From NCBI GenBank assembly GCA_018669975.1, contig JABHSK010000007.1, positions 128,390-192,389 on the forward strand: DNA of 64,000 nt. The letters run 5' to 3'. Positions 8,011-55,006 of the stretch are shown one piece after another (positions within the stretch are counted from its first letter, which is position 1; each line of letters opens with the position of its first letter). The notes below the pieces were generated by a model. That model was not told the DNA's origin. It worked only from the letters and a program-made list of their open reading frames with translations, and searched no databases. The position numbers and the translations under genes are program-made. Source of the DNA: Candidatus Parcubacteria bacterium. Its GTDB lineage: Bacteria > Patescibacteriota > Patescibacteriia > UBA1558 > GWA2-36-10.

Positions 8011-8034
8011 TATAAATATATTAAAAAATCCCGG

Positions 8035-8062: not shown

Positions 8063-8100
8063 ATCTTTATTTTTAAGGTCTTTTCTGCTATAATTAGCCT

Positions 8101-15964: not shown

Positions 15965-16396
15965 CTAGGAGGTGGAACTTGTTGTCCGTTGTTTGCGTCT
16001 AGCAAAGAGCTTGCGGAGCAGCCAAATGACCACGATCAGTACCAAGACGAATTTGGCTAGTGCCCAGAGATCCCAGATGAATCGCATGCTAAAGAGATAG
16101 CCGAAGAATGATTTGATTTTGGGGATAGGATCCACAAAGCCATGGTTCTTCTGGTAGACTTCATCTGGAGTCATAAAGGTTAGTGAGTCAACGGGCACTT
16201 CGCGCGTATCTTCGAAGTAGCGGAATTGTCCGTTGTCGCTCTGCGTCCAACGCAGCACTTTCCAGTATTTGGATCCTTGAGCGTTAGTTCGTTCGATGCA
16301 GGGGACTTCACGATAAGTAATGATCTTGGCCATACAGCTGGAGCTGATGGCCAGCAGCGTTAGGACTGCGACCAGTATCAGGGCCAGCTTTTTCAT
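15965..16396 (-). CDS. Hypothetical exported/membrane-anchored protein (signal peptide, about 80-aa domain, C-terminal TM, basic tail). GC-rich cassette gene.
   Basis: 143-aa ORF, N-terminal MKKLALILVAVLTLLAISSSC. About 50% GC against an about 33% backbone. Second gene of a two-gene unit. Confidence 0.55.
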   Translation of the reverse strand: MKKLALILVAVLTLLAISSSCMAKIITYREVPCIERTNAQGSKYWKVLRWTQSDNGQFRYFEDTREVPVDSLTFMTPDEVYQKNHGFVDPIPKIKSFFGYLFSMRFIWDLWALAKFVLVLIVVIWLLRKLFARRKQRTTSSTS

Positions 16397-16398
16397 AT

Positions 16399-16587
16399 TC
16401 AGTCTCCTTTTGGGTGTTGGATAGTTACCTTTCCGGTCAGCGTCATGCTGACAAAAGGACCAAACAGCTCGTTACTCACGCAATTGACGCAAGCGCCAAT
16501 AACACGCTTGAATTGATAGAGGTATATAGTGCTGAGGGTCAGTACAAGCAGCAGTAAGGGGAGTGCGATTTTCAGTGTGAGTTCCAT
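16399..16587 (-). CDS. Hypothetical single-TM small protein (62 aa from the SD-preceded Met). GC-rich cassette gene.
   Basis: The ORF track begins at 16611, but AAAGGAG lies 6 nt before the second ATG (MELTLK...). Three-nt gap to the downstream gene. Confidence 0.5.
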   Translation of the reverse strand: MELTLKIALPLLLLVLTLSTIYLYQFKRVIGACVNCVSNELFGPFVSMTLTGKVTIQHPKGD

Positions 16588-16629
16588 GAGTACTCCTTTG
16601 TTAATGTTCATTGCACTGTTGTAGTGCTA

Positions 16630-16684
16630 ATTGACTATTTGGAAGTCAATATATAATTATAGCATATTTTATGCATTTTGTCAA
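16630..16684 (-). promoter_or_regulatory. Consensus promoter (TTGACA-N17-TATAAT) plus operator-like inverted repeat ATTGACT-N7-AGTCAAT for cassette 16587..15965
   Basis: Minus-strand read: ttgacaaaatgcataaaatatgctataat tatatattgacttccaaatagtcaat. Confidence 0.6.
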
Positions 16685-16707
16685 TATTCTTAGGTTTTAA
16701 GATAAAA

Positions 16708-16735
16708 AAACTCCTCGTTAGCATAACAAGGAGTA
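16708..16735 (-). terminator. Terminator of 16753..16995
   Basis: Imperfect hairpin actcctcgtt/aacaaggagt with a T-run on the minus strand. Confidence 0.5.
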
Positions 16736-16752
16736 ATAGCCATTAAACGGGC

Positions 16753-16995
16753 TTATTTTGTCTGTTTAGGCCTTTTCCTGAAGATCAGGTAAAAGGTTCC
16801 CAGGCCAGCTAGGATAAAGCCCATGCCAGGCAAAATAACGTTTAGGCGGCCAGTGAAATAGCCAAGAACTATGCAGAGGATTACCCAACTAATGATGACC
16901 CAAGGTATGTCTTTTGGTTTGATTTTTATATAAATCATAACCAGACCTTTCGCTGAAGAAAATAGAAAAAACAAGTGAACAGTAGTTTTTAACAT
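16753..16995 (-). CDS. Hypothetical small membrane protein (2 TM)
   Basis: 80-aa hydrophobic ORF with backbone-like composition. Confidence 0.4.
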   Translation of the reverse strand: MLKTTVHLFFLFSSAKGLVMIYIKIKPKDIPWVIISWVILCIVLGYFTGRLNVILPGMGFILAGLGTFYLIFRKRPKQTK

Positions 16996-17088: not shown

Positions 17089-18588
17089 ATGGAGAAAAAT
17101 CAAAAATCAGAGATTGATATCAATGATGAATATCAACAACGTTTAGCTAAGTTAGCAAGTCTAAAAAAACAGGGCATAGACCCATATCCAGCTAGGACAA
17201 ATAAAAATACAACAGTAGCTGATTTTTTGAATGATTTTGATAAGTTATTCAAAAGTCAAAAAGTAATAATTGTAGCTGGGCGCATTACTAGTTTAAGGAT
17301 GCAGGGTGGTTCTTGTTTTTTGAATATTGAAGATTATTCTGGTAAAGTGCAGATTTTTTTACGAAAAGATCAGGTTGGCGCAGAGGAGTATAAAATTTTC
17401 AAAGAAAATTACGATTTAGGAGATTTTGTAGAATTTTCTGGCAAAGCTTTTGAGACCAGGACTAAAGAGCCAACTTTATTGGCAGACAAGTTTATTATTT
17501 TAAGTAAAACTTTATTGCCGCTGCCAGATCAATACTATGGCCTTAAGGACCCAGATCTAAGATATAGAAAAAGATATTTAGATTTACTGATTAATCCAGA
17601 GGTCAAGCAGACTTTTGCTTTGCGTAGTCAAATTATAAAATTAACTAGACAGTATTTTGACAAACACGATTTCATGGAGGTTGATACTCCGGTTTTGCAG
17701 AGTGTAGCTGGGGGGGCCACTGCCCAACCATTTGTTACTCATCACAATGCTTTGGATATGGATTTGTATTTGCGAGTGGCTCCTGAGCTTTATTTGAAAC
17801 GTTTGATTATTGGTGGTTATGATAAAGTTTATGAGATTGCCAGGTGTTTCCGTAATGAAGGTATCGATCATCAACATAATCCAGAGTTTACTCAAATTGA
17901 AGCTTATTGGGCATATCAGGATTATGATTTCTTGATGAAGTTTACGGAAAACTTTTTTGAATTTTTAGTTAAAGAAATTAACAACGGGGATACTAAAATT
18001 AAGAATGGTAAAGATACTATAGACTTTAAGACTCCTTATCCACGTTTAGATTTCAAAGAAGAGCTAGATAAAGCACTGAAGATTGATCTAGATAAGACTA
18101 ATGACAAGGATTTGATAGCTATAGCCAAGAAAGCTAAATTACCAGTAGACTCGACTTGGGGTCGGGGTAAGCTTTTGGATGAGTTGTATAAAAAATTTGT
18201 ACGCTTAAAAATTACTCAGCCAGCTTTTATTATCAATCATCCTTTAGAGCTTTCGCCACTATCTAAAAAGATTCCAGATAGAGAGAATTATGTAGAAAGG
18301 TTTCAATTGGTAGTGAAAACAGCTGAAATGTGTAATGCTTTTTCTGAGCTTAATGATGCACTAGATCAAGAAGAGCGTTTTGTAGAGCAAAAAAAACTAC
18401 GTGAAGCTGGTGATGAGGAAGCTCAGGGTGCTGACGCTGAATTTGTTGAAGCACTCAAACATGGCATGCCACCAACAGCTGGAATTGGTATTGGTATAGA
18501 CAGGCTGGTAATGATGTTGGGTGACATAGAAAACATCAAGGAAGTTATTTTATTCCCAACTATGAGACCAAAGAATGAAGATAAATAA
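17089..18588 (+). CDS. lysS: Lysyl-tRNA synthetase, class II
   Basis: FRNEGIDHQHNPEFTQIEAYWAY (motif 2) and class II motif 3. Confidence 0.9.
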   Translation: MEKNQKSEIDINDEYQQRLAKLASLKKQGIDPYPARTNKNTTVADFLNDFDKLFKSQKVIIVAGRITSLRMQGGSCFLNIEDYSGKVQIFLRKDQVGAEEYKIFKENYDLGDFVEFSGKAFETRTKEPTLLADKFIILSKTLLPLPDQYYGLKDPDLRYRKRYLDLLINPEVKQTFALRSQIIKLTRQYFDKHDFMEVDTPVLQSVAGGATAQPFVTHHNALDMDLYLRVAPELYLKRLIIGGYDKVYEIARCFRNEGIDHQHNPEFTQIEAYWAYQDYDFLMKFTENFFEFLVKEINNGDTKIKNGKDTIDFKTPYPRLDFKEELDKALKIDLDKTNDKDLIAIAKKAKLPVDSTWGRGKLLDELYKKFVRLKITQPAFIINHPLELSPLSKKIPDRENYVERFQLVVKTAEMCNAFSELNDALDQEERFVEQKKLREAGDEEAQGADAEFVEALKHGMPPTAGIGIGIDRLVMMLGDIENIKEVILFPTMRPKNEDK

Positions 18589-19177
18589 ACTTTTAGTAGC
18601 TACTCATAATCCTGGAAAGTTTGTCGAAATAAAACGACAACTAACTGATTTGGGCATAGAGGTTGTTTCACTTAAGGATGTCGGGATCGATCAGGACTTT
18701 GAAGAGACCGGTAATACTTTTGAAGACAATGCACGTGGTAAGGCTAGATTTTATTATAAATTGGCAGGCATACCAACCATAGCGGATGATTCTGGATTAG
18801 AGGTGGATGCTTTGGGTGGAGAACCCGGAGTGAAATCACGCCGTTGGCCTGGTTATGAAGCTGGAGATCAAGAGTTGTTAGATCTGTTAGTTAATAAATT
18901 AAAAGGTGTGCCTTGGGAAAAGAGAACGGCTACCTTTATAGCTACTGCAGTGATTATTGATGGTGATAAAGAAATAGTAACTAGAGGGGAGAACAGGGGT
19001 AAAATTGGCTTAAAGTTAGCTTGTCCAATAAAACCAGGGATACCGTGGGCTTCAATATTTTATCCAGAGGGGCACGATAAGGTTTTCTCTCAATTAAGTA
19101 TTGATGATAAAAATAAAATTAGCCATCGCGGCAAAGCATTAAATAAAGTAATTAAAGAATTAAAAGAAAATGATTAA
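18575..19177 (+). CDS. rdgB: dITP/XTP pyrophosphatase (Ham1/RdgB)
   Basis: [15 protein letters not shown]...[17 protein letters not shown]. Confidence 0.85.
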
Positions 19178-19919
19178 AAAACTATTTTTATTGACCGCTC
19201 TAGTATTCATTTTTAGCGGTTGTAGTGCAACTCAACAAACAAAGGTGACAGAGGATTGTCGATCAATTACCAACTTAGATCAATGTGTAGAGTCGGATTG
19301 TGTGGTTTGTCCACCATGCGCGGCTTGTAGTTCGCTTAGTTGTCAAACAGAGGAGTTTTGTGCGGATTTAGGTCCAGGTTTCGATAATGAATGGTATAAA
19401 AATATTCAACAAAATATAATTGATACAAATAAAACAATGGATGCAATAATTAAAACCAATAAAGGGGATATTAAGATTGAGCTTCATGCTGGTAAAACCC
19501 CAAAGACAGTAGACAATTTTGTTAAATTGTCAAAGGAAGGATTTTACGATGGTATTTATTTTCATCGAGTAATTCCTGATTTTATGATTCAAACTGGAGA
19601 CCCTCAAGCTAAAGGTACCCCAGGAGTAGATTTTTCATTTGAACGGGATGGTAGTGGTTTACCTATAGCTGGCACCGGTGGACCTGGTTATAAATTTGCT
19701 GATGAATTTCAGCCTGATCTTAAACACGATGTTCCGGGTATAGTTTCAATGGCTAACTCAGGTCCAGGTACCAATGGTTCGCAATTTTTCATTACTCACG
19801 TGGCTACACCTTGGTTAGACAATATGCACACTGTCTTCGGTAGAGTGCTAGAAGGACAGGATATAGTAGATAGTATTGTTCAAGGTGATAAAATAGAAGG
19901 TATTATCATTAATGAATAA
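19170..19919 (+). CDS. Cyclophilin-type peptidyl-prolyl isomerase lipoprotein with a Cys-rich N-terminal extension
   Basis: Lipobox FSGC; [15 protein letters not shown] and [17 protein letters not shown] cyclophilin motifs. Confidence 0.8.
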
Positions 19920-24280: not shown

Positions 24281-25087
24281 TTAGGCAATACTGACATTGG
24301 CATTGTCGGTAAAAATCTTACTTTGGGCTTCGGGGCTACTAGGCCAGTTTCGAATAACTTCGTCGATCAGGCTCATGGCAGTCAGGAAGTCACAGTGGAC
24401 AGATTGGATACCGAAGCGGTAGCCTTTCTTGTCACCGTCTTCACCAATGAAAGTGATAGACTCTTCTAGTCCCTCACGTGCACCTTCGACTTTGACCAAA
24501 GTAAACACGATTCTGCCGGCGGAGACCAGGCTACGCATTGCGACATTGCCGAATTGGCCACTCATACCACACTTGTCCGAAGCATCGATGACTTTCAGTA
24601 GTCCGTTTTCATAGACCTGGCGTAGGAAACAATCCCAGGCCTTACTCAGGACAGTCGTCTCGGCGAAGAAATATGATTCAATATTGTGGCGGACATTGGC
24701 GCCCATGCTTCGATATTCCATATCACGCTCAATGGCACTCTCTATTAGGCGTGCCAAGGTGCTGATAGTTAGGGCTTTTTCGACAGCCTGAAATTGGACA
24801 TCCAGCAGATCGACGACTTCATCGTTACCGCGTTCGATTGCTTCCAGGTAGTCTTGGCGGCACTTGGCCACTACTGAGTGGTCATCGTGTCGGAAGAGTT
24901 CCCAGGCATCAGCTAGGATGCGAGGTAGATAGTGAGAGATGCCACAGTGTTTAAAAGTGGTTTCGTCGGCTACTCTTTCGTCGAGATACCAGCGTAGGAA
25001 AAACACAAGATGTTTTTCACCGCGGGTCTGGAAATCTCCAGCATGCAGATAGCCTGATAGGGCTCGAGTGAGTTCGTTTTTTTGCAA
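24281..25087 (-). CDS. Hypothetical 268-aa cytoplasmic protein, GC-rich orphan with a TTG start preceded by GGAGG
   Basis: Long ORF at about 50% GC with its own promoter, SD and terminator. No family recognised by eye. Confidence 0.55.
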   Translation of the reverse strand: MQKNELTRALSGYLHAGDFQTRGEKHLVFFLRWYLDERVADETTFKHCGISHYLPRILADAWELFRHDDHSVVAKCRQDYLEAIERGNDEVVDLLDVQFQAVEKALTISTLARLIESAIERDMEYRSMGANVRHNIESYFFAETTVLSKAWDCFLRQVYENGLLKVIDASDKCGMSGQFGNVAMRSLVSAGRIVFTLVKVEGAREGLEESITFIGEDGDKKGYRFGIQSVHCDFLTAMSLIDEVIRNWPSSPEAQSKIFTDNANVSIA

Positions 25088-25147
25088 GGTATTACCTCCA
25101 GTTAAAGTACATAGTTGAAGCCAAATATATAGCTCGAATGACAGTTA

Positions 25148-25215
25148 TTTTTACTATGAATATCATTTTTTGTCAATAATTGACATGTTTTGTTGGTATA
25201 TGTTAAGATACATTT
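25148..25215. promoter_or_regulatory. Divergent promoter region built on palindrome TGTCAAT-A-ATTGACA (two overlapping -35 TTGACA hexamers, one per strand)
   Basis: 25171..25185 seen directly. Plus-strand TTGACA-N17-TTAAGA(T). Minus-strand TTGACA-N17-TAAAAA(T) leads to the TTG-start gene. Confidence 0.5.
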
Positions 25216-25224
25216 AGCTTTTTT

Positions 25225-25480
25225 AGAACCTTAATTATACAACAACATGATGGCTGTAGAAGGGAAGGCCAGTATCTTGGAGACGCTCGGAATGGGTACC
25301 CAAAAGGAAGGCCTACGTGGCCCAATTAACCCTAAGGGATTCCGAGCTGTTTTAGGCAAATGTGCCTACCAACTATGTCCTAGATACCCCCTGATACAGC
25401 CACCTATTACCCCCTACCGAACCATTGAGATTTTTCCGCATAACGCTAAAAAGCCTCAATCTCGGTAGGGGGCTTTTTTT
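25225..25480 (+). ncRNA. Candidate structured ncRNA (about 250 nt) ending in a long GC-rich terminator hairpin. Weak resemblance to 23S rRNA domain III segments.
   Basis: GC-rich, stop-interrupted except for a weak 73-aa ORF with no SD. Internal pairings ggaaggcc...ggaaggcc. Terminator cccctaccga...tcggtagggg followed by ttttttt. Confidence 0.35.
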
Positions 25481-25723
25481 ATTAACATTTGACAAGATTT
25501 TGTTTATATATTAAGTTGAAAGTAGAAGGTATATAGAAAACTGAATAAAAGTTGTAAATCAATACAAATTACAAATCGCCAAAAACAAAAATATCTGGTA
25601 CTTTGACAATCCAGATTGATGATAGATAGCGTTTTAGCCTGTATTGATTTTTTGTTTCCTGTCACCCCACCACACCCAAATTTCCGACATGGTGTCGGAA
25701 TACAACCAGAAAGGTGGTTCATC

Positions 25724-26149
25724 ATGAAGAACGGGAGGAATAACCATAAGACACACAGACGTGTGAGGTATTACTTGTATTGGCTGTGTTTCGCTTGGAT
25801 GGTCGCTCAAATGGCGCTCATCCTCTGGAAATTCTTTGGATTTCCGCCCCCTATCATCATTCCGCCGAGTTTCCCGGTGTATTATTTTGTAGTCCTAGTC
25901 GTCTATTCGGTCGTCAGGGCGAGCGCTCGTTGGGCGCACAAGGTATTACCGCGAAAGAAGGGTGGAACCTTTGTGTATCTGTGGGGCATTTTTGCACTAC
26001 TGATTCACATCATTGCTGCGTTTGGTAACGGGCGCTTCGAAATTCCCAGAGTCACGTTTGACAACTTGTTGTTTGTCTCCATTGTTTACGTGGCATCTAG
26101 GATTGAAAAGCGTTTATTTCTAAATATACGCAATGGCTCTAAACATTAA
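25724..26149 (+). CDS. Hypothetical small membrane protein (141 aa from the SD-preceded Met; 3-4 TM, Pro-rich loop)
   Basis: GAAAGGTGG SD 6 nt before the ATG at 25724, in frame with the longer ORF-track call. Perfect 8-bp hairpin ttccgaca-tgg-tgtcggaa immediately upstream of the SD. Confidence 0.5.
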   Translation: MKNGRNNHKTHRRVRYYLYWLCFAWMVAQMALILWKFFGFPPPIIIPPSFPVYYFVVLVVYSVVRASARWAHKVLPRKKGGTFVYLWGIFALLIHIIAAFGNGRFEIPRVTFDNLLFVSIVYVASRIEKRLFLNIRNGSKH

Positions 26150-36685: not shown

Positions 36686-36748
36686 TATAGATTATATTTA
36701 TGAAAACCGCCTTTTTAGGTGGTTTTTTTGTTATTTGCGTATTTATTA

Positions 36749-36802
36749 TTGACAATTTATAATATTTATGGTATAGTGCTTGGTTCGATAATTGACTGAA
36801 CC
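36749..36802 (+). promoter_or_regulatory. Consensus promoter TTGACA-N17-TATAGT plus inverted repeat GGTTC-N11-GAACC upstream of 36827
   Basis: attgacaatttataatatttatggtatagt; ggttcgataattgactgaacc. Confidence 0.55.
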
Positions 36803-36826
36803 TTCACACAAAAAAGGAGAAACGAC

Positions 36827-37672
36827 ATGCGTCGTATTTTTTTGCATGATAACCTGGACATCGATGCTGTTGCTAGTGCTTGGGCAGCAGAACGTTTTAT
36901 CCCTGGTTTCAAGGATGCTACCTTTGCTTTTCGTCCGGCTGACTATGATGGCCACGAAATGGATGAGGGTGATATCGCTGTCGATATGACAATTGGTATC
37001 AAGGGTAAGCTTGACGATGATGGCACGCAGCACTCCTCTTTCGCTAGCATCATTGCCCAGTATGCCCCGCTTGAGGATCAGGCTGCTTTGCATCCCCTGG
37101 TCACCTTCATCGATGCGCAGGACAGTTATGGTTCTGCTATCAAGCACATGGTGCCCGATATCGATGATGATGCTCTGAATATTCTTTCCACTGTCACAGT
37201 TAGCTCGGTTCTCCGGGCTTTGCAGAATACCAACCAGAGAAACGATCGCTCCGTGCTTTATAAGATGCTGATGATTTTTGATGGCCTGTTTGGCTGTGGT
37301 AAGGCTCGGCAGGAAGCTGAGAAAGAGGCCGATCAGGCTGAGCTTTTGGCCGATGGTCAGGTAGCTATCGTCGACAATTCTCGGCGTTATGCCACCAACA
37401 GTATTCTTTTCAACCGCGGTGTGCGTGCGATCATCTACATTGATGATTACAATCTGGGAGTTGTTCGTAGCAGCGAAGAAGCTTTCCGGGCTGATGATCC
37501 CCGTATTTGTGCGGTAGTTGAGGCTGCTGGTGAGTTCGATGAGTGGTTTGCCCACTCTGCTGGTTTCCTGTTCTGCCGTGGTAGTCGTAAGTCTCGACAG
37601 ACTTCTCCTTCTCAGGTCAATCCTCGTGATTTGGCCCAGGCTTTGGTAGATGTTGTTTCTACTGCTGCCTAA
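36827..37672 (+). CDS. Hypothetical acidic 281-aa protein, GC-rich cassette. N-terminus weakly resembles DHH phosphoesterase motif I.
   Basis: AAGGAG SD 8 nt before the ATG; terminator follows. FLHDNLDIDAVASAWAA resembles H-x-N-P-D-x-D-A-x-G-S, but no DHH triad is seen. Confidence 0.5.
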   Translation: MRRIFLHDNLDIDAVASAWAAERFIPGFKDATFAFRPADYDGHEMDEGDIAVDMTIGIKGKLDDDGTQHSSFASIIAQYAPLEDQAALHPLVTFIDAQDSYGSAIKHMVPDIDDDALNILSTVTVSSVLRALQNTNQRNDRSVLYKMLMIFDGLFGCGKARQEAEKEADQAELLADGQVAIVDNSRRYATNSILFNRGVRAIIYIDDYNLGVVRSSEEAFRADDPRICAVVEAAGEFDEWFAHSAGFLFCRGSRKSRQTSPSQVNPRDLAQALVDVVSTAA

Positions 37673-37682
37673 AGTAAGTATG

Positions 37683-37711
37683 CCGGGAGCGCGTAGCGTT
37701 CCCGGTTTTTT
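37683..37711 (+). terminator. Terminator of 36827..37672
   Basis: ccggga-gcgcgtagcgt-tcccgg followed by tttttt. Confidence 0.65.
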
Positions 37712-37805
37712 ATTGGCTAATATTGACAAAAATAGTTATTTTGGTTAAATTTATCTATTATTTAGCACCTTAAAATCATCTATTTTCTCTAAAAAGGAGA
37801 CTTTG

Positions 37806-44158: not shown

Positions 44159-44635
44159 TTATACTTCTTGTCCGTTTTCTAGGTAAACAGCCTTATCATT
44201 TTTTATAGCTGACATGACCTCATCTAAGCGATTTACTATACCTGGCATTAGTTTTCCCTTAGCCTCTGTTTCATCAACAAATTTCATTTCTGTTAGCTCA
44301 TCGGTTTGCAAGGTTATACTTTTTATTTCTTTATTTGATAACTTGCCGCCATAGAAAATAAAAAAGTAACCTTCTGGTTTATAATCATGCTTTACTTTGT
44401 AATCAACACAAACAAGTTGTAGCTTGTCTACGTGCAGGTCAAGTTCTTCTTTTATTTCTCTTTGGAGTGCTTGTCGTGGAGACTCGTTTTCATCTATAGA
44501 TCCTCCAGGTAGTAGCCAACCATCTCGATAGTTTGGTTTTACAATTAGGATTTGTTTTTTATTATTAAAAAGAATCACCCCGGCAGCGCCGCGTTTGGTG
44601 GGGAGTGCTTGATAAAATTCTTCTGGTGAGATCAT
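44159..44635 (-). CDS. NUDIX hydrolase
   Basis: Nudix box GGSIDENESPRQALQREIKEELDL. Confidence 0.8.
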   Translation of the reverse strand: MISPEEFYQALPTKRGAAGVILFNNKKQILIVKPNYRDGWLLPGGSIDENESPRQALQREIKEELDLHVDKLQLVCVDYKVKHDYKPEGYFFIFYGGKLSNKEIKSITLQTDELTEMKFVDETEAKGKLMPGIVNRLDEVMSAIKNDKAVYLENGQEV

Positions 44636-44636: not shown

Positions 44637-44800
44637 TTGACTTATTATGTTTGATAATTTATGATTGATTCATCGACTCAGGTGTAGGCCATATAAGGCT
44701 GAACAACGAGGCGTAGACGGGACGCCTACAAAGGTAATTATTACCCAGAGACCTGATCCCAGCCAGCCATCCACGTATGTGCTGGTCTTTTTATTAAAGC
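44637..44800 (+). ncRNA. Candidate sRNA: consensus promoter (TTGACT-N17-TATGAT), then an about 125-nt GC-rich transcript, then a terminator. Divergent or antisense relative to the flanking NUDIX genes.
   Basis: ttgacttattatgtttgataatttatgat. Hairpins aggcgt-agacggg-acgcct and ccagc...gctgg followed by tctttttatt. No ORF. Confidence 0.4.
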
Positions 44801-45213
44801 ATCTTTATAAAATCTTCAATACCTACTAAAGTATCTAGTTCTTCTATCTCTGATTTTAAAAACCACCTTACATCAGAAACCTCCTCATCCATTGGTTGTG
44901 GGTTTCCAGTTACTATTTCTGCCTCATAGCATACTACTAGCACATGACATTCTTCTCCATTAGATCTTGTCCATATTCTGGATTGTATTTCGGGCATGAT
45001 TCTTTTAATTAAGACATCACAACCTATTTCTTCCTTGCATTCTCTTACTGCGGCATCTTTTGGATTTTCATTGTATTCTACTTTTCCCCCAGGTAATTCC
45101 CATTTTCCATGTGCAGCTGCTATTGAGGGATCATTTCGCTGCTGTAAAAGTATTTTACCATCTTTGTTTTTTATAAGTGCCACAGCGGCAATTAATTGTT
45201 TTTCACTTTCCAT
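44794..45213 (-). CDS. NUDIX hydrolase (MutT-like)
   Basis: LPGGKVEYNENPKDAAVRECKEEIGCDV. Confidence 0.8.
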   Translation of the reverse strand: MESEKQLIAAVALIKNKDGKILLQQRNDPSIAAAHGKWELPGGKVEYNENPKDAAVRECKEEIGCDVLIKRIMPEIQSRIWTRSNGEECHVLVVCYEAEIVTGNPQPMDEEVSDVRWFLKSEIEELDTLVGIEDFIKML

Positions 45214-48512: not shown

Positions 48513-48875
48513 TTATTCTTGATTTCTCCTCCAAAATTTTAATGATTTTATCTTACGGGCACTCTTTCTCCAACGACTTAAGTTTTTATCTTTATACTTA
48601 ACTAATTGTCTAGATAACTTGTCTTGAACTGCGTCGACAGCTGCTCGAGGATCAGAGTGGGTTTCTTTAATCGCGATAGTCTGTTTTTGTGGTAAGGTTA
48701 CTCGGGCTTCTACGGTAAATATTTCACCTTTGTTATGTTTTTGATTACGGGATAGGTTGACATTGAAAGACATTATCTTTTCCTGGTACTTGTCTAAGCT
48801 GTTAAATTTATCTTCCAAATATTCTCTAAATGAATCAGTTAAATCAAAATTTCTATTATAAATTTGTATATCCAT
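48513..48875 (-). CDS. hpf: Ribosome hibernation-promoting factor / RaiA family
   Basis: MDIQIYNRNFDLTDSFREYLEDKF... The longer ORF-track call begins with TTG adjacent to the alaS stop. The internal ATG is preferred. Confidence 0.7.
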   Translation of the reverse strand: MDIQIYNRNFDLTDSFREYLEDKFNSLDKYQEKIMSFNVNLSRNQKHNKGEIFTVEARVTLPQKQTIAIKETHSDPRAAVDAVQDKLSRQLVKYKDKNLSRWRKSARKIKSLKFWRRNQE

Positions 48876-48932
48876 ATTTTTGTTTTTAATGTTTATTACT
48901 TTAAGACTATCAGATAGATAATTAAAGTGCAA

Positions 48933-50678
48933 TTACTCTAAAATAGCCTTGATGCGGCGTATTCCGGCAGAGCTTGATTGTTCTTTTTTTATTTTAAAAT
49001 GACCTAATTCGGCGGTGCTTTTTACGTGTGGACCACCACAAATTTCTTGGGAAAATTTTCCAACTTTATATACCTTGACCATTTCGCCATATTTTTTATC
49101 AAATAGGCCGATAGCGCCCTGCTCTTTAGCTTGGGCAACTGACATTTCTTCACATAGCACTGGTAAATCAAGTTCGATTTGTTGGTTAACTATCTCCTCT
49201 ACTTTAGTTTTTTCTTCGTCAGTCATCTTTTCTGGATGGGTAAAGTCAAAGCGCAGCCGTTGCTCGTTTATGTTGCTACCTTTTTGTTGGACATGATCAC
49301 CGAGGACATCACGCAAAGCTTGATGTAGGAGATGGGTAGCCGTATGAAACTTCTTTGCCATCTCACCATCGTCAGCTAGGCCGCCCTTAAACTTTCCAGC
49401 TGAGGCGGTGCGGGATAATTCCTGGTGTTTATTAAAAGCTTCTTCATATTTTTTTTTGTCCAATTTGATTCCTTTTTCTTCAGCCATTTCCAAAGTCATT
49501 TCTATAGGGAATCCGTAAGTAGTAAATAATATAAAAGCTGCTTCTTCGTTTAGCGCGTCTTGAGAAATAAATTTTTCAAATTCTTTCAAGCCTTTGCTGA
49601 GTGTTTTTGAAAACTTACTTTCTTCTTGATTTAGTTGTTCTAAAATGAATTCTTCGTTATCAAATAGTTCTTTATAGTCAGTTTGATAATTTTTGATAAC
49701 CACTTTAGCTAATTTGGTAGTAAATTTATTTTCTATACCTAATTGTTTAGCAAAACGGATAGCTCGACGAATCAAACGGCGCAGAACATAGCCCTGATCT
49801 TTATTGCCAGGGGCAATATTACAGGGATCACCGAGTATAAAAACAGCACTACGGATGTGATCAGCTACAATTCGGAATGATTTTTTATCATCAGCGTATT
49901 TTTTTTCAGATAAGTCCTCTATTTTCTGAATAATTGGCAAGAACAAATCAGTCATGTAGTTATCATCCATACTATTGAGTACAGCTAGGGTGCGTTCTAG
50001 GCCCATGCCAGTATCAACATTTTTTTGTTCTAGTGGTATAAATTTTCCGTCAGCAGTTTTATTATATTCCATTAGAACATTATTCCAGATTTCTACCCAG
50101 CCTTCATCGTCTTCATTGAATTTGGCTGGTGCCTCACCTTCGCCAGTCCAATAGAAAACCTCTGTATCAGGACCACAGGGACCGGTTTCTCCAGCTGGAC
50201 CCCACCAATTATCTTTTACTTTGCAAATTTTTTCTTGGGGAATGCCCAGATCCAACCAGAATTCTTCTGATTCTTGGTCATACTCGGGCACGTCATCGTT
50301 GCCAGCAAAGATGGAGATGCCTAGTTTATTTTTATTTAATTTAAGGATGCCTACCAAAAATTCCAAAGAAAATTTAATGGTATCTTCTTTGAAGTAGTCA
50401 CCTAAAGACCAATTTCCCAGCATTTCAAAAAAGGTATGATGAGTGGTATCACCAATTTCATCGATATCATCAGTACGCATGCATTTTTGAAAATTGGCTA
50501 GACGCTTACCTTCTGGGTGTTTTTCGCCCATTAAATAAGGTACTAGTGGTTGCATGCCAGCAGTTATAAACAAAACACTTGGGTCATTTTCTGGTATCAA
50601 CGAGGCAGAACCAATAATAGCGTGTTTTTTAGCCTTGAAATACTGAAAAAAGTTGTTTTTTAAGTCTTTTGAGGTCAT
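48933..50678 (-). CDS. alaS: Alanyl-tRNA synthetase, compact form (581 aa; catalytic plus shortened editing region, no C-Ala domain)
   Basis: ...FTSAGM-type core (FITAGMQPLVPY), HTATHLLHQAL and CGGPHV editing-site motifs. Ends about 290 aa short of canonical AlaRS. Confidence 0.8.
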   Translation of the reverse strand: MTSKDLKNNFFQYFKAKKHAIIGSASLIPENDPSVLFITAGMQPLVPYLMGEKHPEGKRLANFQKCMRTDDIDEIGDTTHHTFFEMLGNWSLGDYFKEDTIKFSLEFLVGILKLNKNKLGISIFAGNDDVPEYDQESEEFWLDLGIPQEKICKVKDNWWGPAGETGPCGPDTEVFYWTGEGEAPAKFNEDDEGWVEIWNNVLMEYNKTADGKFIPLEQKNVDTGMGLERTLAVLNSMDDNYMTDLFLPIIQKIEDLSEKKYADDKKSFRIVADHIRSAVFILGDPCNIAPGNKDQGYVLRRLIRRAIRFAKQLGIENKFTTKLAKVVIKNYQTDYKELFDNEEFILEQLNQEESKFSKTLSKGLKEFEKFISQDALNEEAAFILFTTYGFPIEMTLEMAEEKGIKLDKKKYEEAFNKHQELSRTASAGKFKGGLADDGEMAKKFHTATHLLHQALRDVLGDHVQQKGSNINEQRLRFDFTHPEKMTDEEKTKVEEIVNQQIELDLPVLCEEMSVAQAKEQGAIGLFDKKYGEMVKVYKVGKFSQEICGGPHVKSTAELGHFKIKKEQSSSAGIRRIKAILE

Positions 50679-50704
50679 ATTTTTATTATAAAAATCTCTT
50701 AAAT

Positions 50705-50733
50705 TTTAGGATATTTAGCCCTAAAAGTCAATG
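50705..50733 (-). promoter_or_regulatory. Proximal alaS promoter (TTGACT-N17-TAAAAT)
   Basis: Minus-strand read: ccattgacttttagggctaaatatcctaaaat. Confidence 0.45.
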
Positions 50734-50796
50734 GTTTACAGTAATGTTGGACCGATAATCTCGATACAATAGAGATAGGTTCGACGTTTTTTTGGT

Positions 50797-50996
50797 AAAA
50801 AAAGACCCTGCCGAGCAGATGGAGGGTCACACGAAACTCTCGCTATATTTCGTGGACACTATATCCATGCTCGGCAGGGTGATGGGCCGGGGTTGGTTAG
50901 GCATCAGCACTACTTGCGTTAAATAAAACAATTGTAGTTCCTTACATATCAAGGAGAGTCGCTGCTGATTATTGCCAACCCCGTTCAAAGATCAAC
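50797..50996 (-). ncRNA. Structured about 200-nt RNA upstream of alaS: own promoter, nested helices, and a long intrinsic terminator (candidate leader or riboregulator)
   Basis: Promoter TTGACA-N17-TACAAT at 51031..51003. Helices GGGGUUGG/CCAACCCC and AUCAGCA/UGCUGAU. Terminator ACCCUGCCGAGCA...UGCUCGGCAGGGU followed by CUUUUUUU. Confidence 0.4.
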
Positions 50997-51045
50997 CTAT
51001 GTATTGTAAAAAATAATTTTTTGTTTGTCAATTAAAATTTAAGAA

Positions 51046-51215
51046 AAAAAAGATCCTACCGAAGTAGGATCGTGGGAAAATTGAGCTGCCGTCGAAGACT
51101 AGTGGTTGTGTAAATTCTGGTTCCGTCCAGAAAAAGTGTTTGCCCATTTTCTACAGGACCATGCTAGATAATCAACAGCAGCCCTTAATGAGCTACTGAA
51201 TCTACCATAGCGAAA
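51046..51215 (-). ncRNA. Candidate about 150-nt sRNA: promoter TTGACA-N17-TATGGT, terminator GAUCCUAC-UUCG-GUAGGAUC plus a U-run
   Basis: Minus-strand read: ccttgacaaatatctaatatttcgctatggt ... gatcctacttcggtaggatctttttttt. No SD-led ORF. Confidence 0.4.
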
Positions 51216-51236
51216 TATTAGATATTTGTCAAGGCT

Positions 51237-51569
51237 TTAATATTGTGTCTGGGCATCAGCTATAGCTTGCTTGAGTTTTGACCAAGGAATTTGGTCTTCA
51301 CCTAATTTAACAGCTTTTTCTTTAAGTGCGGTTACATCGGGACTAACTTCTGGAAAATTAGCCAAAGAGTCTTCATCGGGGATTTGTTTGTTATTGATAG
51401 TCCTCTTCAATACTATTAAATCTCTCATATTGATTGTGGAGGAAGTCAGTAATTTTTGTAGAATAGCTTCAAAATCAGCTACTATTTCTTCTGGTGTTAT
51501 TTCTTGTTCTTGAGTTGATTCGGTCTCAGTTGTGTTATCTTCAGCTGGTGTATATTTTTCCAAAGCCAT
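51237..51569 (-). CDS. Hypothetical acidic protein (110 aa)
   Basis: ORF of native composition. Confidence 0.4.
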   Translation of the reverse strand: MALEKYTPAEDNTTETESTQEQEITPEEIVADFEAILQKLLTSSTINMRDLIVLKRTINNKQIPDEDSLANFPEVSPDVTALKEKAVKLGEDQIPWSKLKQAIADAQTQY

Positions 51570-51626
51570 ATTTTTTATTTAGTAGTTAATATTGATATTA
51601 TACATTATTTTATATAAATAAAATAC

Positions 51627-51655
51627 TTGACAGTATGCTATGCTTGTATTATAAA
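51627..51655 (+). promoter_or_regulatory. Promoter TTGACA-N17-TATAAA for the HD-domain gene
   Basis: tacttgacagtatgctatgcttgtattataaa; AAAGGAGG SD at 51687. Confidence 0.5.
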
Positions 51656-51700
51656 GTAATGTAAAATATTGAACTTTCCATTTAACAAAGGAGGCTAGAA

Positions 51701-52321
51701 ATGCAAGAAACACCCAAAGTTTCTGGTGCAGCTAGATTTGCTGCTCGCTTTAAGGAGTATTTACCCGAAGATAAGCGTTGGTTCCTCAAAAAGGCCTACC
51801 AGTTGTCCAAAGATGCTCATCGTCCCGTCACTCGCAAAGACGGATTAACCCGTTATTTTGAGCACTGTCGCGGTGCTTGTGAGATTGCTATTGGTGAGCT
51901 TGGCATCAAGGATAATTGGCGGCTTTTGGTCGCTATTCTGATGCACGATGGTCCTGAGGACACATGGTTGATTGATTTTCGTTTGATCGAGCGTGTCTTT
52001 GATAAGACTGTTCGTCTGTGGGTCGAATATGTGACCAAAACCGAAGTCAATAAAGACACCTATGTCCGAGACATACTCAACTGTGGTATTCCCGAAGTAT
52101 TGATCATTAAGCTTTGTGATCGTTTGCATAATCTGCGTACTCTGGGCACCACCCCTGAGAAATTCCAGGTCCGTCAGGCTCTAGAAACTCGTGATGAGTA
52201 TTTGGTAATTGCTGAAAAGCTTATCGAAATATTACCAGCTGACCTCAGATGGCGTGGTGTATATTTGCGCGACAACATCGAGGCTGTTTGTAAGTCTTAC
52301 GAAACAGAGTTTGGTATCTAG
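51701..52321 (+). CDS. Small alarmone hydrolase: stand-alone RelA/SpoT-type HD domain, (p)ppGpp/(p)ppApp pyrophosphohydrolase-like
   Basis: RYFEHCRGACEIA, ILMHDGPEDT (HD), IKLCDRLHNLRTL match the SpoT/Mesh1 hydrolase motifs. 206 aa, no synthetase domain. Confidence 0.8.
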   Translation: MQETPKVSGAARFAARFKEYLPEDKRWFLKKAYQLSKDAHRPVTRKDGLTRYFEHCRGACEIAIGELGIKDNWRLLVAILMHDGPEDTWLIDFRLIERVFDKTVRLWVEYVTKTEVNKDTYVRDILNCGIPEVLIIKLCDRLHNLRTLGTTPEKFQVRQALETRDEYLVIAEKLIEILPADLRWRGVYLRDNIEAVCKSYETEFGI

Positions 52322-52328
52322 TCTATCG

Positions 52329-52358
52329 CCTACCCATATTTTATGGGTAGGTTTTTTA
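52329..52358 (+). terminator. Terminator after the SAH gene
   Basis: cctaccca-tattttta-tgggtagg followed by tttttt. Confidence 0.7.
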
Positions 52359-52447
52359 TATTGACAGCTTTTTTATTTATACATAAGATAAATAGGTATT
52401 GATGTTCGTACCATATAGGCTGTAGTCAAAAACCCAAGGAGGGAATT

Positions 52448-52729
52448 ATGTTAGTATTAGCAGAGAAGGAACTATCTTTTTGGGAAGGAGTGAACACATT
52501 CATTGCCAGGCTGAAATTGGCTGGAAAATCAGATGGGTATGTAATGAGGCAGTTAATGCTTCAAGCTACGGGAAAAACTCAAGGATTGTGCCAAGAGGCG
52601 CAAGAATTGCCGTCATTCGGAGAAAATAAACAAACCTGGTCAGATTTACATCGAGTTGCTAATCATCACAAGCAGGAGTTCCGATGGACAGACGGAGTTT
52701 TTTTGACCCTGGTCAACGCTATTTCTTGA
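52448..52729 (+). CDS. Hypothetical 93-aa protein, cassette gene
   Basis: Promoter TTGACA-N17-TAAGAT at 52361..52389, AAGGAGG SD, terminator ggcgc...gcgcc plus T-run. Confidence 0.45.
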   Translation: MLVLAEKELSFWEGVNTFIARLKLAGKSDGYVMRQLMLQATGKTQGLCQEAQELPSFGENKQTWSDLHRVANHHKQEFRWTDGVFLTLVNAIS

Positions 52730-52796
52730 CAGCCTATAAGGGCGCTTTGTATAAAGAGGCGCCTTTTTTATTTGACTAAATTTAAGAGATATAGTA

Positions 52797-53065
52797 ATTT
52801 ACCTTCAGATTGAACATTTCAACTTGGTGCTCGAAAGAACGGCTGTCTAAGCGTGTGAAAGACCACGTGTAGGGATGTAAAGGTTCGAAGCCTAACAGCT
52901 GGGTGGCGATTGACGTCTTTATCTGTAGGATAGGTGGGAGACATCGAAGCGCTGACGCGAGTCAGAGTGGAGTCATCCTTGAAATACCACTGTTTTAGAC
53001 CTCTCTTTCAAAGCCTTTTCGAGCGCCATCTTTTACGGGTCCTGTCATTTGACAGGACTTTTTAT
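52797..53065 (+). ncRNA. 23S rRNA-like fragment (L1-stalk H76-H78 region homolog) as a stand-alone about 270-nt transcription unit
   Basis: UGUAGGAUAGGUGGGAG...(about 45 nt)...CCUUGAAAUACCAC with the same spacing as E. coli 23S around positions 2110-2180; upstream GGCUGUCU...GUGAAAGACC. Own promoter TTGACT-N17-TAATTT at 52762..52790 and terminator gtcctgtca-tt-tgacaggac plus a T-run. Confidence 0.5.
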
Positions 53066-53078
53066 TTTGATTTAGTAA

Positions 53079-53107
53079 TTGACAAATTATAGAAAAAATG
53101 TTATTTT
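53079..53107 (+). promoter_or_regulatory. Promoter TTGACA-N17-TATTTT for 53158
   Basis: taattgacaaattatagaaaaaatgttatttt. Confidence 0.4.
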
Positions 53108-53157
53108 AGCTAGATTTCGAACTTTGTAAACAATTACTCAAACAAGGAGAAAAAGTA

Positions 53158-53415
53158 ATGAGCCAAGATAGGACTGCTGGAGATTTGATTTTTGAAACCA
53201 TAACAGCTATGGGACAAGAAGAACAGGAACATTGTATTCATTGCAATGAAAAATGGTATTCAATTCACTATCGTGATGGTGTCTGTCATAGTTGTCAGCA
53301 AAAAAATCTTCCTGGTAGGACTGAATTAGCTCGTCGTAGTCGTCACATACGAATCATGTATGGTCTGGGCATTGCTGCCCTGTTGTTTTTGATTGGTAGA
53401 GCAATTTTTGGATAG
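53158..53415 (+). CDS. Zinc-ribbon protein with a C-terminal TM helix (85 aa)
   Basis: CIHC-x13-CHSC plus hydrophobic tail GLGIAALLFLIG. AAGGAG SD. Confidence 0.5.
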   Translation: MSQDRTAGDLIFETITAMGQEEQEHCIHCNEKWYSIHYRDGVCHSCQQKNLPGRTELARRSRHIRIMYGLGIAALLFLIGRAIFG

Positions 53416-53478
53416 TAAAAACCATTAATGTTAAGAGTTTAGAGCTCGAGTAGTTCTTTTCTCTGGAAAGGCAAGTTC

Positions 53479-53670
53479 ATGGCTAAGCTTAAAGTTAAAA
53501 TTTTTAGCGGCAGACGTTCTTCTGTTGAAGGTAAAATCAACGCTTATTTAGCTGGTGGTACAGTCGATAAAATTATCGACACCAAATTGACACCACTCAA
53601 TCCAGGGGCAGAGAGTGATATCAATAATCCTAGTGTTATAGCTATGCTGACCTTCACAGTTAAAGATTAG
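53479..53670 (+). CDS. Hypothetical 63-aa protein
   Basis: Weak SD (ggaaagg). Perfect terminator cagccattc-tcatg-aatggctg plus ttttttt at 53679..53710. Confidence 0.4.
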   Translation: MAKLKVKIFSGRRSSVEGKINAYLAGGTVDKIIDTKLTPLNPGAESDINNPSVIAMLTFTVKD

Positions 53671-53947
53671 TATTTGCTACAGCCATTCTCATGAATGGCT
53701 GTTTTTTTTATTAAAAAAGACCACGTCATTATAACGTGGTCGGAGAATTTTTCAGCTTTTTTAGACTTGCTGTTTTCTCCTTTGGAGAATTGCTTGGTAG
53801 GCAGGGATTTGTTGGAAAGGGATTTTGTGGCTGGAAGCCACTACATTTCGAATGATACTTATGATACGAGGTTGGCGATTTGGTTGAGGTCTACGACGAA
53901 ACAGAGTTGAGTTGCGGGGGTGCTTTTTGCACATATAGCCTCCTCTG

Positions 53948-54163
53948 CTAGTTGAGCTTGTGATAATCTTCGGGAGTCCTGTCCCACTCTGGGACAAAAA
54001 TCCAGAGCAGAATGTAGGCGCCTGCGCCTATTCCGTAGATCCAAATCAGGCAAAACCATAGCATGCGAACAATCCAGGTAGGAATTTTCATCCAATAAGC
54101 AAGGCCGGCACAAACACCGCCGAGCCAATTTTCGTTGGTCATGCGTCGAAATTTACTAGTCAT
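53948..54163 (-). CDS. PspC-domain mini-protein (71 aa)
   Basis: LGGVCAGLAYWMKIPTWIVRMLWFCLIWIYGIGAGAYILLWIFVPE matches the PspC domain. AAAGGAG SD. Minus-strand promoter TTGACA-N17-TATACT at 54239..54211. Confidence 0.75.
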   Translation of the reverse strand: MTSKFRRMTNENWLGGVCAGLAYWMKIPTWIVRMLWFCLIWIYGIGAGAYILLWIFVPEWDRTPEDYHKLN

Positions 54164-54279
54164 AATATTCTCCTTTTGTTGGTGTTTTGAAGGTTCTACA
54201 GAGGATAAAAAGTATAAAATATATAGTATGTTTTGTCAAAGCCAATAAAAAAGCCCCACTACTGTGGAGCTCGATAGAT

Positions 54280-54852
54280 TTATGTTTCCAAAAAAGAAGT
54301 TACTGGTAGCACTAAGGCACCCTTTTTTTCGTACCAAGGGATACTGTTGTCGCTACTGTGACCAGATTGACCAGAAATAACATCGTTGCTGATGATAATT
54401 TGATAATCTCTCCTAAGTGCGCCATTCGCAGTTCTTTTGACGCAGCAGTCTGCATTGATACCCATCAAGAATAAGGTGCTAATGTTCAGGGATCGGAGAT
54501 GTTGGTCTAGGTTTGTTTTTTTGAAGCCATTATCATATCCTTTAATGATAGTTTTGTATTGTTGAATATCACCCAGCTCTACCCTTATTTCTTTTATCGT
54601 TTCTCCATAACCTTTAAACTCTAAAACTATAATAGGGATATTATTTTCTCGACAGTGCCTAAGTACAGCAATTTGATTAGGTACGATACGGCCTTTATCA
54701 CCGCTTTTGAGGTTTCCCACAAAACCTTTTTGCATATCGATAAGAACAACAGCTAATCCTGCTTGTTTTAATTCTTGGAGCATTTCCGTAGATAACGGCG
54801 GAATTGGTTTGAAGCGTCTTTTGAGGCGACGCCATCCAAAGCGGAAATTCAT
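54280..54852 (-). CDS. Isochorismatase-family cysteine hydrolase
   Basis: AVVLIDMQKGF and LFLMGINADCCVKRTA (catalytic Cys region). Confidence 0.7.
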   Translation of the reverse strand: MNFRFGWRRLKRRFKPIPPLSTEMLQELKQAGLAVVLIDMQKGFVGNLKSGDKGRIVPNQIAVLRHCRENNIPIIVLEFKGYGETIKEIRVELGDIQQYKTIIKGYDNGFKKTNLDQHLRSLNISTLFLMGINADCCVKRTANGALRRDYQIIISNDVISGQSGHSSDNSIPWYEKKGALVLPVTSFLET

Positions 54853-55006
54853 GTTGGGTCCTTTCCTTTTTTGGTGTTTTTAAAGAACTAAATTTTTTAC
54901 GGACGATGGATTAATATAGAATACATAGGCTAATTAGTCAATGTTTTAAATAAAAAAGACCCCTGAAACCAGGAATCTTTTATTTTTTTTATTATAAGTG
55001 TGTGTA

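Follow-up and report, generated by a model that had tools for sequence, protein, structure and literature searches.

A single-domain small alarmone hydrolase of the RelA/SpoT type encoded in a Candidatus Parcubacteria chromosome

Small alarmone hydrolases (SAHs), which break down (p)ppGpp, the starvation signal of bacteria, are well known, and 11 SAH subfamilies have been published. The hydrolases of the RSH group, to which SAHs belong, are recognized by a set of hallmark residues, namely an Arg in motif HD1, a His in HD2, a His-Asp pair in HD3, a Glu-Asp pair in HD4, Asp-Arg/Lys in HD5, and an Asn in HD6, along with a conserved Tyr (PMC9293644, PMC11554896). The base of the substrate is bound by the HD1 Arg and the HD6 Asn, with a Thr/Ser located three residues past the Asn and the Arg/Lys that follows the HD5 Asp (PMC9293644). 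In human Mesh1, which shares the fold of these enzymes, residue D91 replaces the 3'-beta-phosphate as a ligand of the second metal (PMC11554896). Phages have been proposed to carry SAHs against alarmone-based defence (PMC7229694), and the toxSAS toxins act either by making (pp)pApp or by pyrophosphorylation of tRNA. Genomes that encode an SAH as their only RSH protein are rare in bacteria and also occur in animals and in some archaea (PMC3153485). Regarding the CPR bacteria, a study on Saccharibacteria treated the inability to make (p)ppGpp as an exception, with at least one CPR genome reported to be unable to do so (PMC6031116).

The SAH gene described here lies in a 64-kb stretch of DNA, which was analysed as a whole and is called the window throughout. 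Its product (NCBI MBT6691545.1) and the ribosomal proteins of the window are encoded on one 844,504-bp contig of a metagenome-assembled genome (Candidatus Parcubacteria bacterium), of which contig the window covers about 8%, and this is consistent with the reduced genome assumed in a first-pass annotation of the sequence. The rest of the window is occupied by typical CPR housekeeping genes, such as those for ribosomal proteins, Mur enzymes, aminoacyl-tRNA synthetases, SecA, and glycosyltransferases. The reading that we favour, and regard as probable, is that the product is a cytoplasmic SAH, competent in catalysis, that lowers alarmone levels, that the gene is chromosomal and belongs to a clade centred on CPR bacteria, and that it does not form one half of a toxin-antitoxin pair.

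The gene, its product and its expression signals

The transcription unit contains the following features:

51627-51655, + strand: promoter-like site, consisting of a -35 element TTGACA (51627-51632), a 17-nt spacer, and a -10 element TATAAA (51650-51655)
51650-51683, + strand: near-invariant block of ~34 nt in the three-species alignment, running from the -10 element into the 5' leader
51687-51694, + strand: Shine-Dalgarno (SD) sequence AAAGGAGG, placed 6 nt before the ATG, with AAAGGAG common to three species
51701-52321, + strand: SAH gene, 206 aa, with an ATG start
52328-52360, + strand: intrinsic terminator of the SAH gene (also delimited as 52328-52352), with an 11-bp stem, a 3-nt loop, and a T-run

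The product is an intact single-domain hydrolase of the RSH type (SpoT-like), i.e., a protein of a known kind. Residues 32-174 match the Pfam family HD_4 (PF13328), whose cut-off of 27.2 bits is clearly passed by the score of 40.8 (E 2.4e-10). The RelA/SpoT models of NCBIfam, spoT_relA included, have about 700 positions, and because the matches are confined to the first ~170 of these, the protein corresponds to the hydrolase domain alone; synthetase, TGS, and ACT domains are all absent from the ORF. The first-pass annotation had described the protein in the same terms, as 206 aa without any of these three domains, and had quoted two HD motifs. Both are in the translation, within AILMHDGPEDT (H82 D83 ... 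E86 D87) and KLCDRLHNLRTL (D140 R141 ... N144), the ORF is exact, and the HMM comparison that the annotation proposed as a check gave the HD_4 match reported above. The HD-only reading frame is followed by a stop codon and the terminator, it is preceded by the SD sequence, and it has the same length in three species. The N-terminus is not signal peptide-like.

In addition, no RSH synthetase came into view in the 64-kb window, as the annotation had also stated: a motif search, a Pfam scan of the unidentified ORFs, and an HMM of the synthetase and TGS regions of CPR Rel proteins, run against all window ORFs of at least 40 aa, each gave no synthetase. TGS and ACT domains are likewise absent from the window.

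The structural comparison leads to the same protein class. The best matches in the PDB by sequence are hydrolase domains of Rel/SpoT proteins, the first being Thermus thermophilus Rel (E 1.6e-11), and the hallmark R, H, HD, ED, DR, and N align with theirs. The AlphaFold (AF2) model, built on a 42-sequence alignment of the family, has a pLDDT of 94.6 and a pTM of 0.91, and in a Foldseek search of the PDB the ppGpp-bound form of T. thermophilus Rel comes first (TM 0.73). Every significant match of this search is an RSH hydrolase, the top 40 each with a probability of 1.00, and the fold is the all-helical HD fold.

Regarding expression, the gene had been described as part of a GC-rich cassette with a consensus promoter and a strong SD sequence, and this description needs adjustment only for the promoter. 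The -35 element is perfect and the spacer has the length given above, while the -10 element agrees with the consensus at 5/6 positions and lacks the final T. The last T of a -10 element is usually invariant, and its absence explains why the promoter scanner did not list the site. The -35 and -10 blocks are kept in two related species, with a spacer that varies, and the promoter, leader, and SD sequence are conserved across the three species. The block at 51650-51683 is near-invariant although synonymous sites in the SAH gene are near saturation, and it contains the right arm of an inverted repeat (I1, 20 nt, 90% complementary) whose left arm lies at 51595-51614, so that the two arms flank the -35 element; the block and the repeat may simply reflect two divergent promoters. 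Since an intrinsic terminator of its own lies directly downstream, the SAH gene forms a monocistronic unit. The gene has a GC content of 45.1%, compared with 35.6% across the window; in GC3 it ranks ninth among 74 ORFs, with a value of 0.44 (median 0.276, sd 0.089). A 23S-like element was considered as a conserved RNA partner of the SAH and was rejected, being absent in a related species and folding no more stably than shuffled sequences (z -0.25).

Catalytic residues and predicted activity

The residues that carry the hydrolase hallmarks are encoded at the following positions:

51833-51865, + strand: HD1 Arg45 (51833-51835), Tyr52, and HD2 His55 (51863-51865), inside the motif G-x-RYFEH-x-R, placed by alignment with T. 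thermophilus Rel
51944-51961, + strand: HD3 His82-Asp83 and HD4 Glu86-Asp87, in the motif HDGPED (roles from PMC9293644, PMC11554896)
52118-52141, + strand: HD5 Asp140-Arg141, HD6 Asn144, and Thr147, in the motif DRLHNLRT

All of the metal-binding His and Asp residues are kept in the alignment with T. thermophilus Rel; their loss was one of the two findings that the first-pass annotation had named as speaking against its reading. The four residues of the 2H2D metal site (H55, H82, D83, and D140) align with those of Rel and are invariant in the family (42/42 members), and the ED diad is close to this level, with E86 in 42/42 and D87 in 41/42. The remaining hallmarks behave alike: Y52, R141, and N144 are found in all 42 members, R45 in 41, and position 147 is T/S in 40. 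When the protein is aligned with what we take to be the Mesh1 sequence, the Asp that determines phosphatase activity (D91) falls on Lys113, a position that is K/R in 40/42 family members, as it is in Rel/SpoT.

With all of the hallmark residues kept and a Lys at position 113, an active 3'-pyrophosphohydrolase of the Rel/SpoT type is predicted from the sequence, and the protein is thus predicted to be neither a pseudo-enzyme nor a phosphatase like Mesh1. Among the candidate substrates, namely (p)ppGpp, (p)ppApp, pGpp, and pyrophosphorylated tRNA, the sequence cannot tell one from another.

The family, the locus and the search for a partner

A profile of the family was run against 1.84 billion cluster representatives (50% identity), and 1,567 representatives were retained at E<=1e-30. 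Among the best 150 of these, the HD domain is present in all and a synthetase or TGS domain in none; their median length is 214 aa, 132 have the length of the window protein, and a few are tandem HD duplications. Almost all members of the family are about 200 aa long. They carry a signature of their own, G-x-RYFEH-[PLC]-R, in place of the PYIxHP of Rel, and we refer to them as the RYFEH family. The sources named in the records are Parcubacteria (the window genome), Candidatus Paceibacterota, and "Patescibacteria group bacterium". Many of the metagenome loci come, as judged from the contig names, from groundwater assemblies of small size fractions.

The position of the family was examined with an NJ tree (50 bootstraps, with the distances of very divergent pairs capped) that included HD domains of long RSH proteins from many phyla, four CPR Rels among them. 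The long RSHs, including the four CPR Rels, split from the SAH family in 50/50 bootstraps, and for this reason the family is considered a distinct SAH lineage, and not the outcome of a recent truncation of a CPR Rel. The window protein belongs to a clade of four sequences that are 81-87% identical (50/50 bootstraps), and this clade groups with chromosomal rather than phage members, at the weak support of 25/50. The motif [IV]K[LM][CA]DRLHN is common to all Rel/SpoT proteins, and a scan of genome contigs with it returned at least four CPR Rel genes and at least one CPR SAH.

Of the five family loci taken from IMG/VR, four are genuine large phages, with genes for a DNA helicase, an NAD-dependent ligase, a polymerase, two RNA ligases, an HNH endonuclease, and NAMPT; at the locus L095, the family member is placed beside RNA ligases. 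One of the four is a 485-kb "uncultured phage" from GenBank (LR745208.1), whose family member shares 34% identity with the window protein along 98% of its length. The clade is therefore common to CPR chromosomes and big phages, and its presence in phages fits the published idea of counter-defence, with the window copy on a different branch.

The immediate neighbours of the gene in the window are two small ORFs:

51237-51569, - strand: orf110, an acidic protein encoded divergently, a conserved neighbour in close relatives only, without a Pfam, PADLOC, or PHROGs family
52448-52729, + strand: orf93, served by a separate promoter (52361-52389) and terminator (52738-52766), and conserved beside the SAH gene in no more than the close relatives

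Like orf110, orf93 lacks any match in Pfam, PADLOC, and PHROGs, and no homologue of either is found beside distant members of the family. The order alaS-orf110-SAH-orf93 is common to the window genome, a sister that is 83% identical (559,896-bp contig), and a third species that is 84% identical, and it differs among the three past orf93; for orf110, this synteny takes in the window genome and the lineages P0002 and P0003. Against two related species, the dN/dS of the SAH gene is 0.09-0.11 and that of orf93 about 0.13, at a dS of about 0.8-1.1, and the GC content of the SAH gene is 45-48% in all three species. Taken together, synteny in three species, purifying selection at a dS near 1, and the shared GC richness indicate that the gene is old and maintained: it is a long-maintained chromosomal gene and no recent insertion. 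Its raised GC content (45% vs 36%) and the island of small unannotated ORFs around it are compatible with an old horizontal acquisition.

The first-pass annotation had pointed to stand-alone SAHs that act as antitoxins of toxSASs or as counter-defence enzymes of phages and mobile elements, and had suggested that the enzyme could degrade (p)ppGpp/(p)ppApp of host or phage origin. At the window locus, the proposal of an antitoxin or a mobile counter-defence enzyme finds no support: the genes within +/-10 kb are housekeeping genes, namely alaS, hpf, secA, and those for a NUDIX protein, a ROK protein, and a copper ATPase; no integrase, tRNA, or phage structural gene was found in this interval, nor any tRNA or integrase gene in the window as a whole; the neighbouring ORFs are without a match in PADLOC or PHROGs; no cognate synthetase or toxin, whose presence would have spoken against an orphan hydrolase, is adjacent; and the gene is syntenic and evolves at a dN/dS of about 0.1. 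Nor do the small neighbours have the properties of a toxSAS-SAH module of the ATfaRel type, in which a toxin of the RelA_SpoT synthetase fold shares a two-gene operon with the SAH, with orf110 divergent, orf93 under its own promoter and terminator, and neither with a synthetase-fold signal. What survives of the proposal is the membership of genuine large phages in the RYFEH family, though on a branch other than that of the window copy.

The question of a partner was extended to the whole family by using the RYFEH motif as a probe, and 80 metagenome loci and five IMG/VR loci yielded 77 distinct proteins on a total of 788 kb; 25 of the loci extend for 5 kb or more to either side. The 77 loci contain no match to the HMM of the CPR Rel synthetase and TGS regions and no EVQIRT-type motif; the HMM might miss a toxSAS of strongly divergent sequence, but the motif check was negative as well. 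No partner gene recurs, as no family of neighbours is present in more than eight of the 77 loci, and relatives at about 40% identity are found in an unrelated chromosomal context (polA-holA-GNAT-rpsT-rmuC). Finally, a BLASTP comparison of the small ORFs of the window with those that flank distant members gave nothing below E 0.6. With neither a synthetase nor a recurrent partner at the 77 loci, the role of a toxSAS antitoxin is unsupported, and the gene was rejected as half of a toxin-antitoxin pair, since no toxSAS is adjacent to it here or at the family loci.

Probable role, alternatives and comparison with known systems

If the favoured reading holds, Mn2+ would most likely be held by H55, H82, D83, and D140, with a second metal probably on the E86-D87 pair, while R45 and N144 would grip the base. 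The enzyme would cut the 3'-diphosphate off (p)ppGpp, and perhaps off (p)ppApp as well, leaving GDP/GTP and pyrophosphate. Since synthetase, TGS, and ACT domains are all missing from the protein, neither the ribosome nor a partner within the same molecule can switch it; the enzyme is presumed to be constitutively active, with its activity set mainly by transcription of the monocistronic unit from its own conserved promoter. Its likely role would be to keep alarmone levels low, alongside any synthetase that the cell has or meets.

This role depends in part on the remainder of the genome, because a task of housekeeping alarmone clearance would lose its obvious substrate if no synthetase were encoded there. 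In that case the SAH would be a true orphan, acting on alarmones taken up from, or injected by, a host or a competitor or produced by an infecting phage, or salvaging guanine nucleotides from (p)ppGpp in an organism that relies on scavenging, and we regard this as the strongest of the alternatives, though a doubtful one. It agrees with the absence of a synthetase from the 64-kb window and from the 10 kb around each of the 77 family loci, with the documented SAH-only genomes (PMC3153485) and the CPR genome reported to be unable to make (p)ppGpp (PMC6031116), and with the existence of secreted and injected alarmone synthetases (PMC12691689). However, the window is only the stated small part of its contig, nothing ties the SAH to uptake or export, its N-terminus being unlike a signal peptide, and a compact Rel with a synthetase is common in CPR bacteria. 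This compact Rel (~500 aa, HD+SYNTH+TGS) was seen in Saccharibacteria, Parcubacteria, Peribacteria, and Moranbacteria and in near-complete CPR genomes of 0.81 and 0.87 Mb; the material included the best 120 of about 8,000 matches that a profile of the CPR Rel synthetase and TGS regions gave in a set of 5.8 billion proteins. In two near-complete CPR genomes the gene order is Fpg-Rel-NDK-cyclophilin-ComEC; the cyclophilin gene of the window (19170-19919) lies instead between HAM1 and SerRS.

We think it unlikely that the genome is truly without an alarmone synthetase. It is at most as credible that the lineage has lost every synthetase and, in conjunction with this loss, uses the SAH as a sink for foreign alarmones, i.e., those of the host, of the secreted or injected synthetases of competitors, or of toxSASs triggered by phages; here an episymbiont living on scavenged nucleotides would detoxify or salvage foreign (p)ppGpp/(p)ppApp, and we would hesitate to bet on the two parts jointly. 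If true, the RYFEH clade, with its members in both CPR bacteria and huge phages, would represent an "anti-alarmone" tool in which bacterial parasites have specialised, and a genome without a synthetase would offer a clean case for studying the function of such a hydrolase in an obligate symbiont.

The protein could also act on another substrate, either as a phosphatase of the 3'-monophosphate of NADPH, like Mesh1, or as a hydrolase of some other 3'-phosphorylated nucleotide. In its favour, Mesh1 shares both fold and motifs with the protein and occurs in organisms without synthetases (PMC11554896). Two observations make this reading quite improbable: Rel hydrolase domains score higher than Mesh1 (47.6 against 33 bits), and the position of D91 is taken by Lys113, K/R in nearly all family members, in the alignment with the presumed Mesh1 sequence.

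Least credible of all, and in our view very improbable, is that the SAH serves as a type IV antitoxin or anti-defence hydrolase against a toxSAS encoded elsewhere or on a mobile element, or is the relic of a phage counter-defence gene that the chromosome has captured. In favour of this reading, SAHs such as ATfaRel and those of phages were able to neutralise every toxSAS tested (PMC7229694), the RYFEH family has members in genuine large phages (with the 485-kb huge phage and the neighbourhood of RNA ligases at L095), and a gene that is GC-rich relative to its genome and has its own promoter and terminator has a moron-like layout. The partnerless loci, the neighbourhood without defence or phage genes, the synteny, the purifying selection (dS ~1) and shared GC bias of the gene in three species, and the grouping of the window clade with chromosomal members all speak against it.

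The protein represents a very large uncharacterised clade that is found in the ultra-small CPR bacteria and in some huge phages (~1,570 clusters at 50% identity). Public records name such proteins "bifunctional (p)ppGpp synthetase/hydrolase"; as the proteins of this clade cannot synthesise alarmones, metabolic reconstructions of CPR genomes could attribute a stringent response to them in error.

Among the known systems, the HD domain of long Rel/SpoT proteins, such as T. thermophilus Rel (6S2T/6S2U) and Acinetobacter baumannii SpoT (7QPR), is the best match by both sequence and structure. The TM score of 0.73 extends over ~197 columns, with the N-terminal helix and the C-terminal helices overlaid, and the SAH has the six HD motifs and the conserved Tyr of these proteins, as well as VTK, unlike the VTD of Mesh1. 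It differs from the long proteins in lacking the synthetase, TGS, and other regulatory domains, in having RYFEH in place of PYIxH, and in its separation from them in the tree (50/50). RickSpo of Rickettsia conorii is likewise a hydrolase-only RSH of a bacterium with a reduced genome (PMC3153485); RickSpo, however, is a long RSH that has lost domains (PMC3153485), whereas the family described here stands apart from the long RSHs.

With Mesh1 (3NR1/5VXA), the SAH has in common the fold, the 2H2D site, and the ED diad, and Mesh1 is found in genomes without synthetases (PMC3153485); unlike Mesh1, the SAH has Lys113 in place of the phosphatase-determinant Asp (PMC11554896). Phage SAHs and ATfaRel (PbcSpo/PaSpo; PMC7229694) are also stand-alone hydrolases, and the RYFEH family in turn has phage members, but the window SAH is chromosomal, without a toxSAS neighbour, syntenic in three species, and on a different branch. 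Finally, the characterised SAHs, namely Corynebacterium glutamicum RelH (7QOC/7QOD), Pseudomonas aeruginosa SAH (6YVC), Listeria monocytogenes Lmo0812 (4YF1), Leptospira RelH (7QOE), and Treponema denticola SAH (7P1Y), are single-domain RSH hydrolases of ~170-200 aa with the same fold and catalytic residues (PMC9293644). The window SAH is nevertheless only ~20% identical to them (phmmer E 1e-3 to 0.3, or no match), and where the characterised SAHs have an insertion after HD1, most of the RYFEH family has a short loop of Rel length, to which the window clade adds one residue.

The islet around the small alarmone hydrolase gene

The stand-alone small alarmone hydrolase (SAH) gene (51701-52321, plus strand) lies in a 4.4 kb stretch, 50600-55000, in which 14 terminator-like hairpins were found, versus 2.8 expected from shuffled sequences, and across which near-consensus promoters are numerous. 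Nearly every small ORF of this stretch (orf110, the SAH gene, orf93, orf85, orf63, and pspC) seems to form a transcription unit by itself. Since the sister genomes differ in the genes downstream of orf93/orf85, the stretch acts as a variable islet, bounded by alaS and the copper ATPase gene.

The promoter of the SAH gene, upstream of which the divergently transcribed orf110 lies (51237-51569, minus strand), is marked by the following feature:

51595-51614 and 51650-51669: arms of a 20-nt inverted repeat, 90% complementary, on both sides of the -35 element

Each arm falls within a block conserved in three species, and the left one reads TGTATAAT on the minus strand, towards orf110. The repeat may be an operator, or its arms may simply correspond to the -10 elements of a divergent promoter pair.

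Past orf93 (52448-52729, plus strand), the islet holds two further elements:

52915-53000, plus strand: 23S rRNA-like stretch from the L1-stalk region, GGAUAGGUGGGAG...GAAAUACCAC
53037-53060: terminator-like hairpin, directly past the 23S-like stretch

This 86-nt stretch matches positions 2128-2213 of the bacterial 23S rRNA model with 54.9 bits (E 1.5e-13), which reaches the gathering level of Rfam, and is placed between orf93 and orf85, distant from every rRNA operon. Its folding is no better than that of shuffles (z -0.25), and it is not kept in one relative, a species that has another gene, on the minus strand, at this spot. It could be either an rRNA fragment gained via recombination, or an L1-binding mimic.

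Upstream genes and other GC-rich patches

The following genes lie upstream of the SAH gene, some kilobases away, or adjoin the islet:

44159-44635 and 44794-45213, minus strand: two NUDIX hydrolases
48513-48932, minus strand: ribosome hibernation factor (S30AE/HPF)
48933-50678, minus strand: alanyl-tRNA synthetase (AlaRS) of 581 aa (domains tRNA-synt_2c and tRNA_SAD)

Certain NUDIX hydrolases break down (p)ppGpp, and in other bacteria HPF is linked to the stringent response. Bacterial AlaRS is typically ~870 aa long, so that the C-terminal part of this one appears to be missing; the enzyme of the sister genome has the same length.

Further GC-rich patches occur elsewhere in the window:

15965-16995, 24281-26149, and 36746-37729: GC 45-49%, GC3 0.43-0.61 (window median GC3, 0.28)
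36746-37729, minus strand (327 aa), and 36827-37672, plus strand (281 aa): pair of candidate ORFs on opposite strands within one such patch, with near-complete overlap

The ORFs of these patches have no Pfam family, bar one weak ChrB_C match, and of the overlapping pair only the plus-strand ORF has a Pfam match, a weak one, so that either strand may be the coding one. The genome seems to contain several islets whose unannotated genes stand apart in composition, that of the SAH among them.

Relatives of the hydrolase and their annotation

A few members of the SAH family, namely P0053 (537 aa), P0055 (400 aa), and P0097 (559 aa), carry the hydrolase domain in tandem duplication, each protein showing two or three stretches that resemble HD_4, and the second copy of P0053 retains HPLE...LLHDSIED. 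Large phages also carry members of the clade, one of them a 485-kb huge phage (LR745208.1, surveyed as L093/L122). Another phage locus, L095, is arranged as follows:

7662-8801: RNA ligase (Rnl-like)
9896-10549: SAH
17608-18813: RNA ligase (Rnl-like)

This gene order is suggestive, and hints at functions in tRNA repair or against toxSAS toxins. An IMP dehydrogenase gene, whose product serves guanine-nucleotide synthesis, lies immediately downstream of the SAH in 3 of the 77 family loci (at 10741-12183 in L108, and in two more loci from metagenomes), too few for an association.

In NCBI (MBT6691545.1) and JGI, the 206-aa, hydrolase-only SAH is labeled either [quoted passage not shown] or "GTP diphosphokinase". 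Such a synthetase-type name is incorrect across the whole clade, and could misdirect metabolic reconstructions of CPR genomes.
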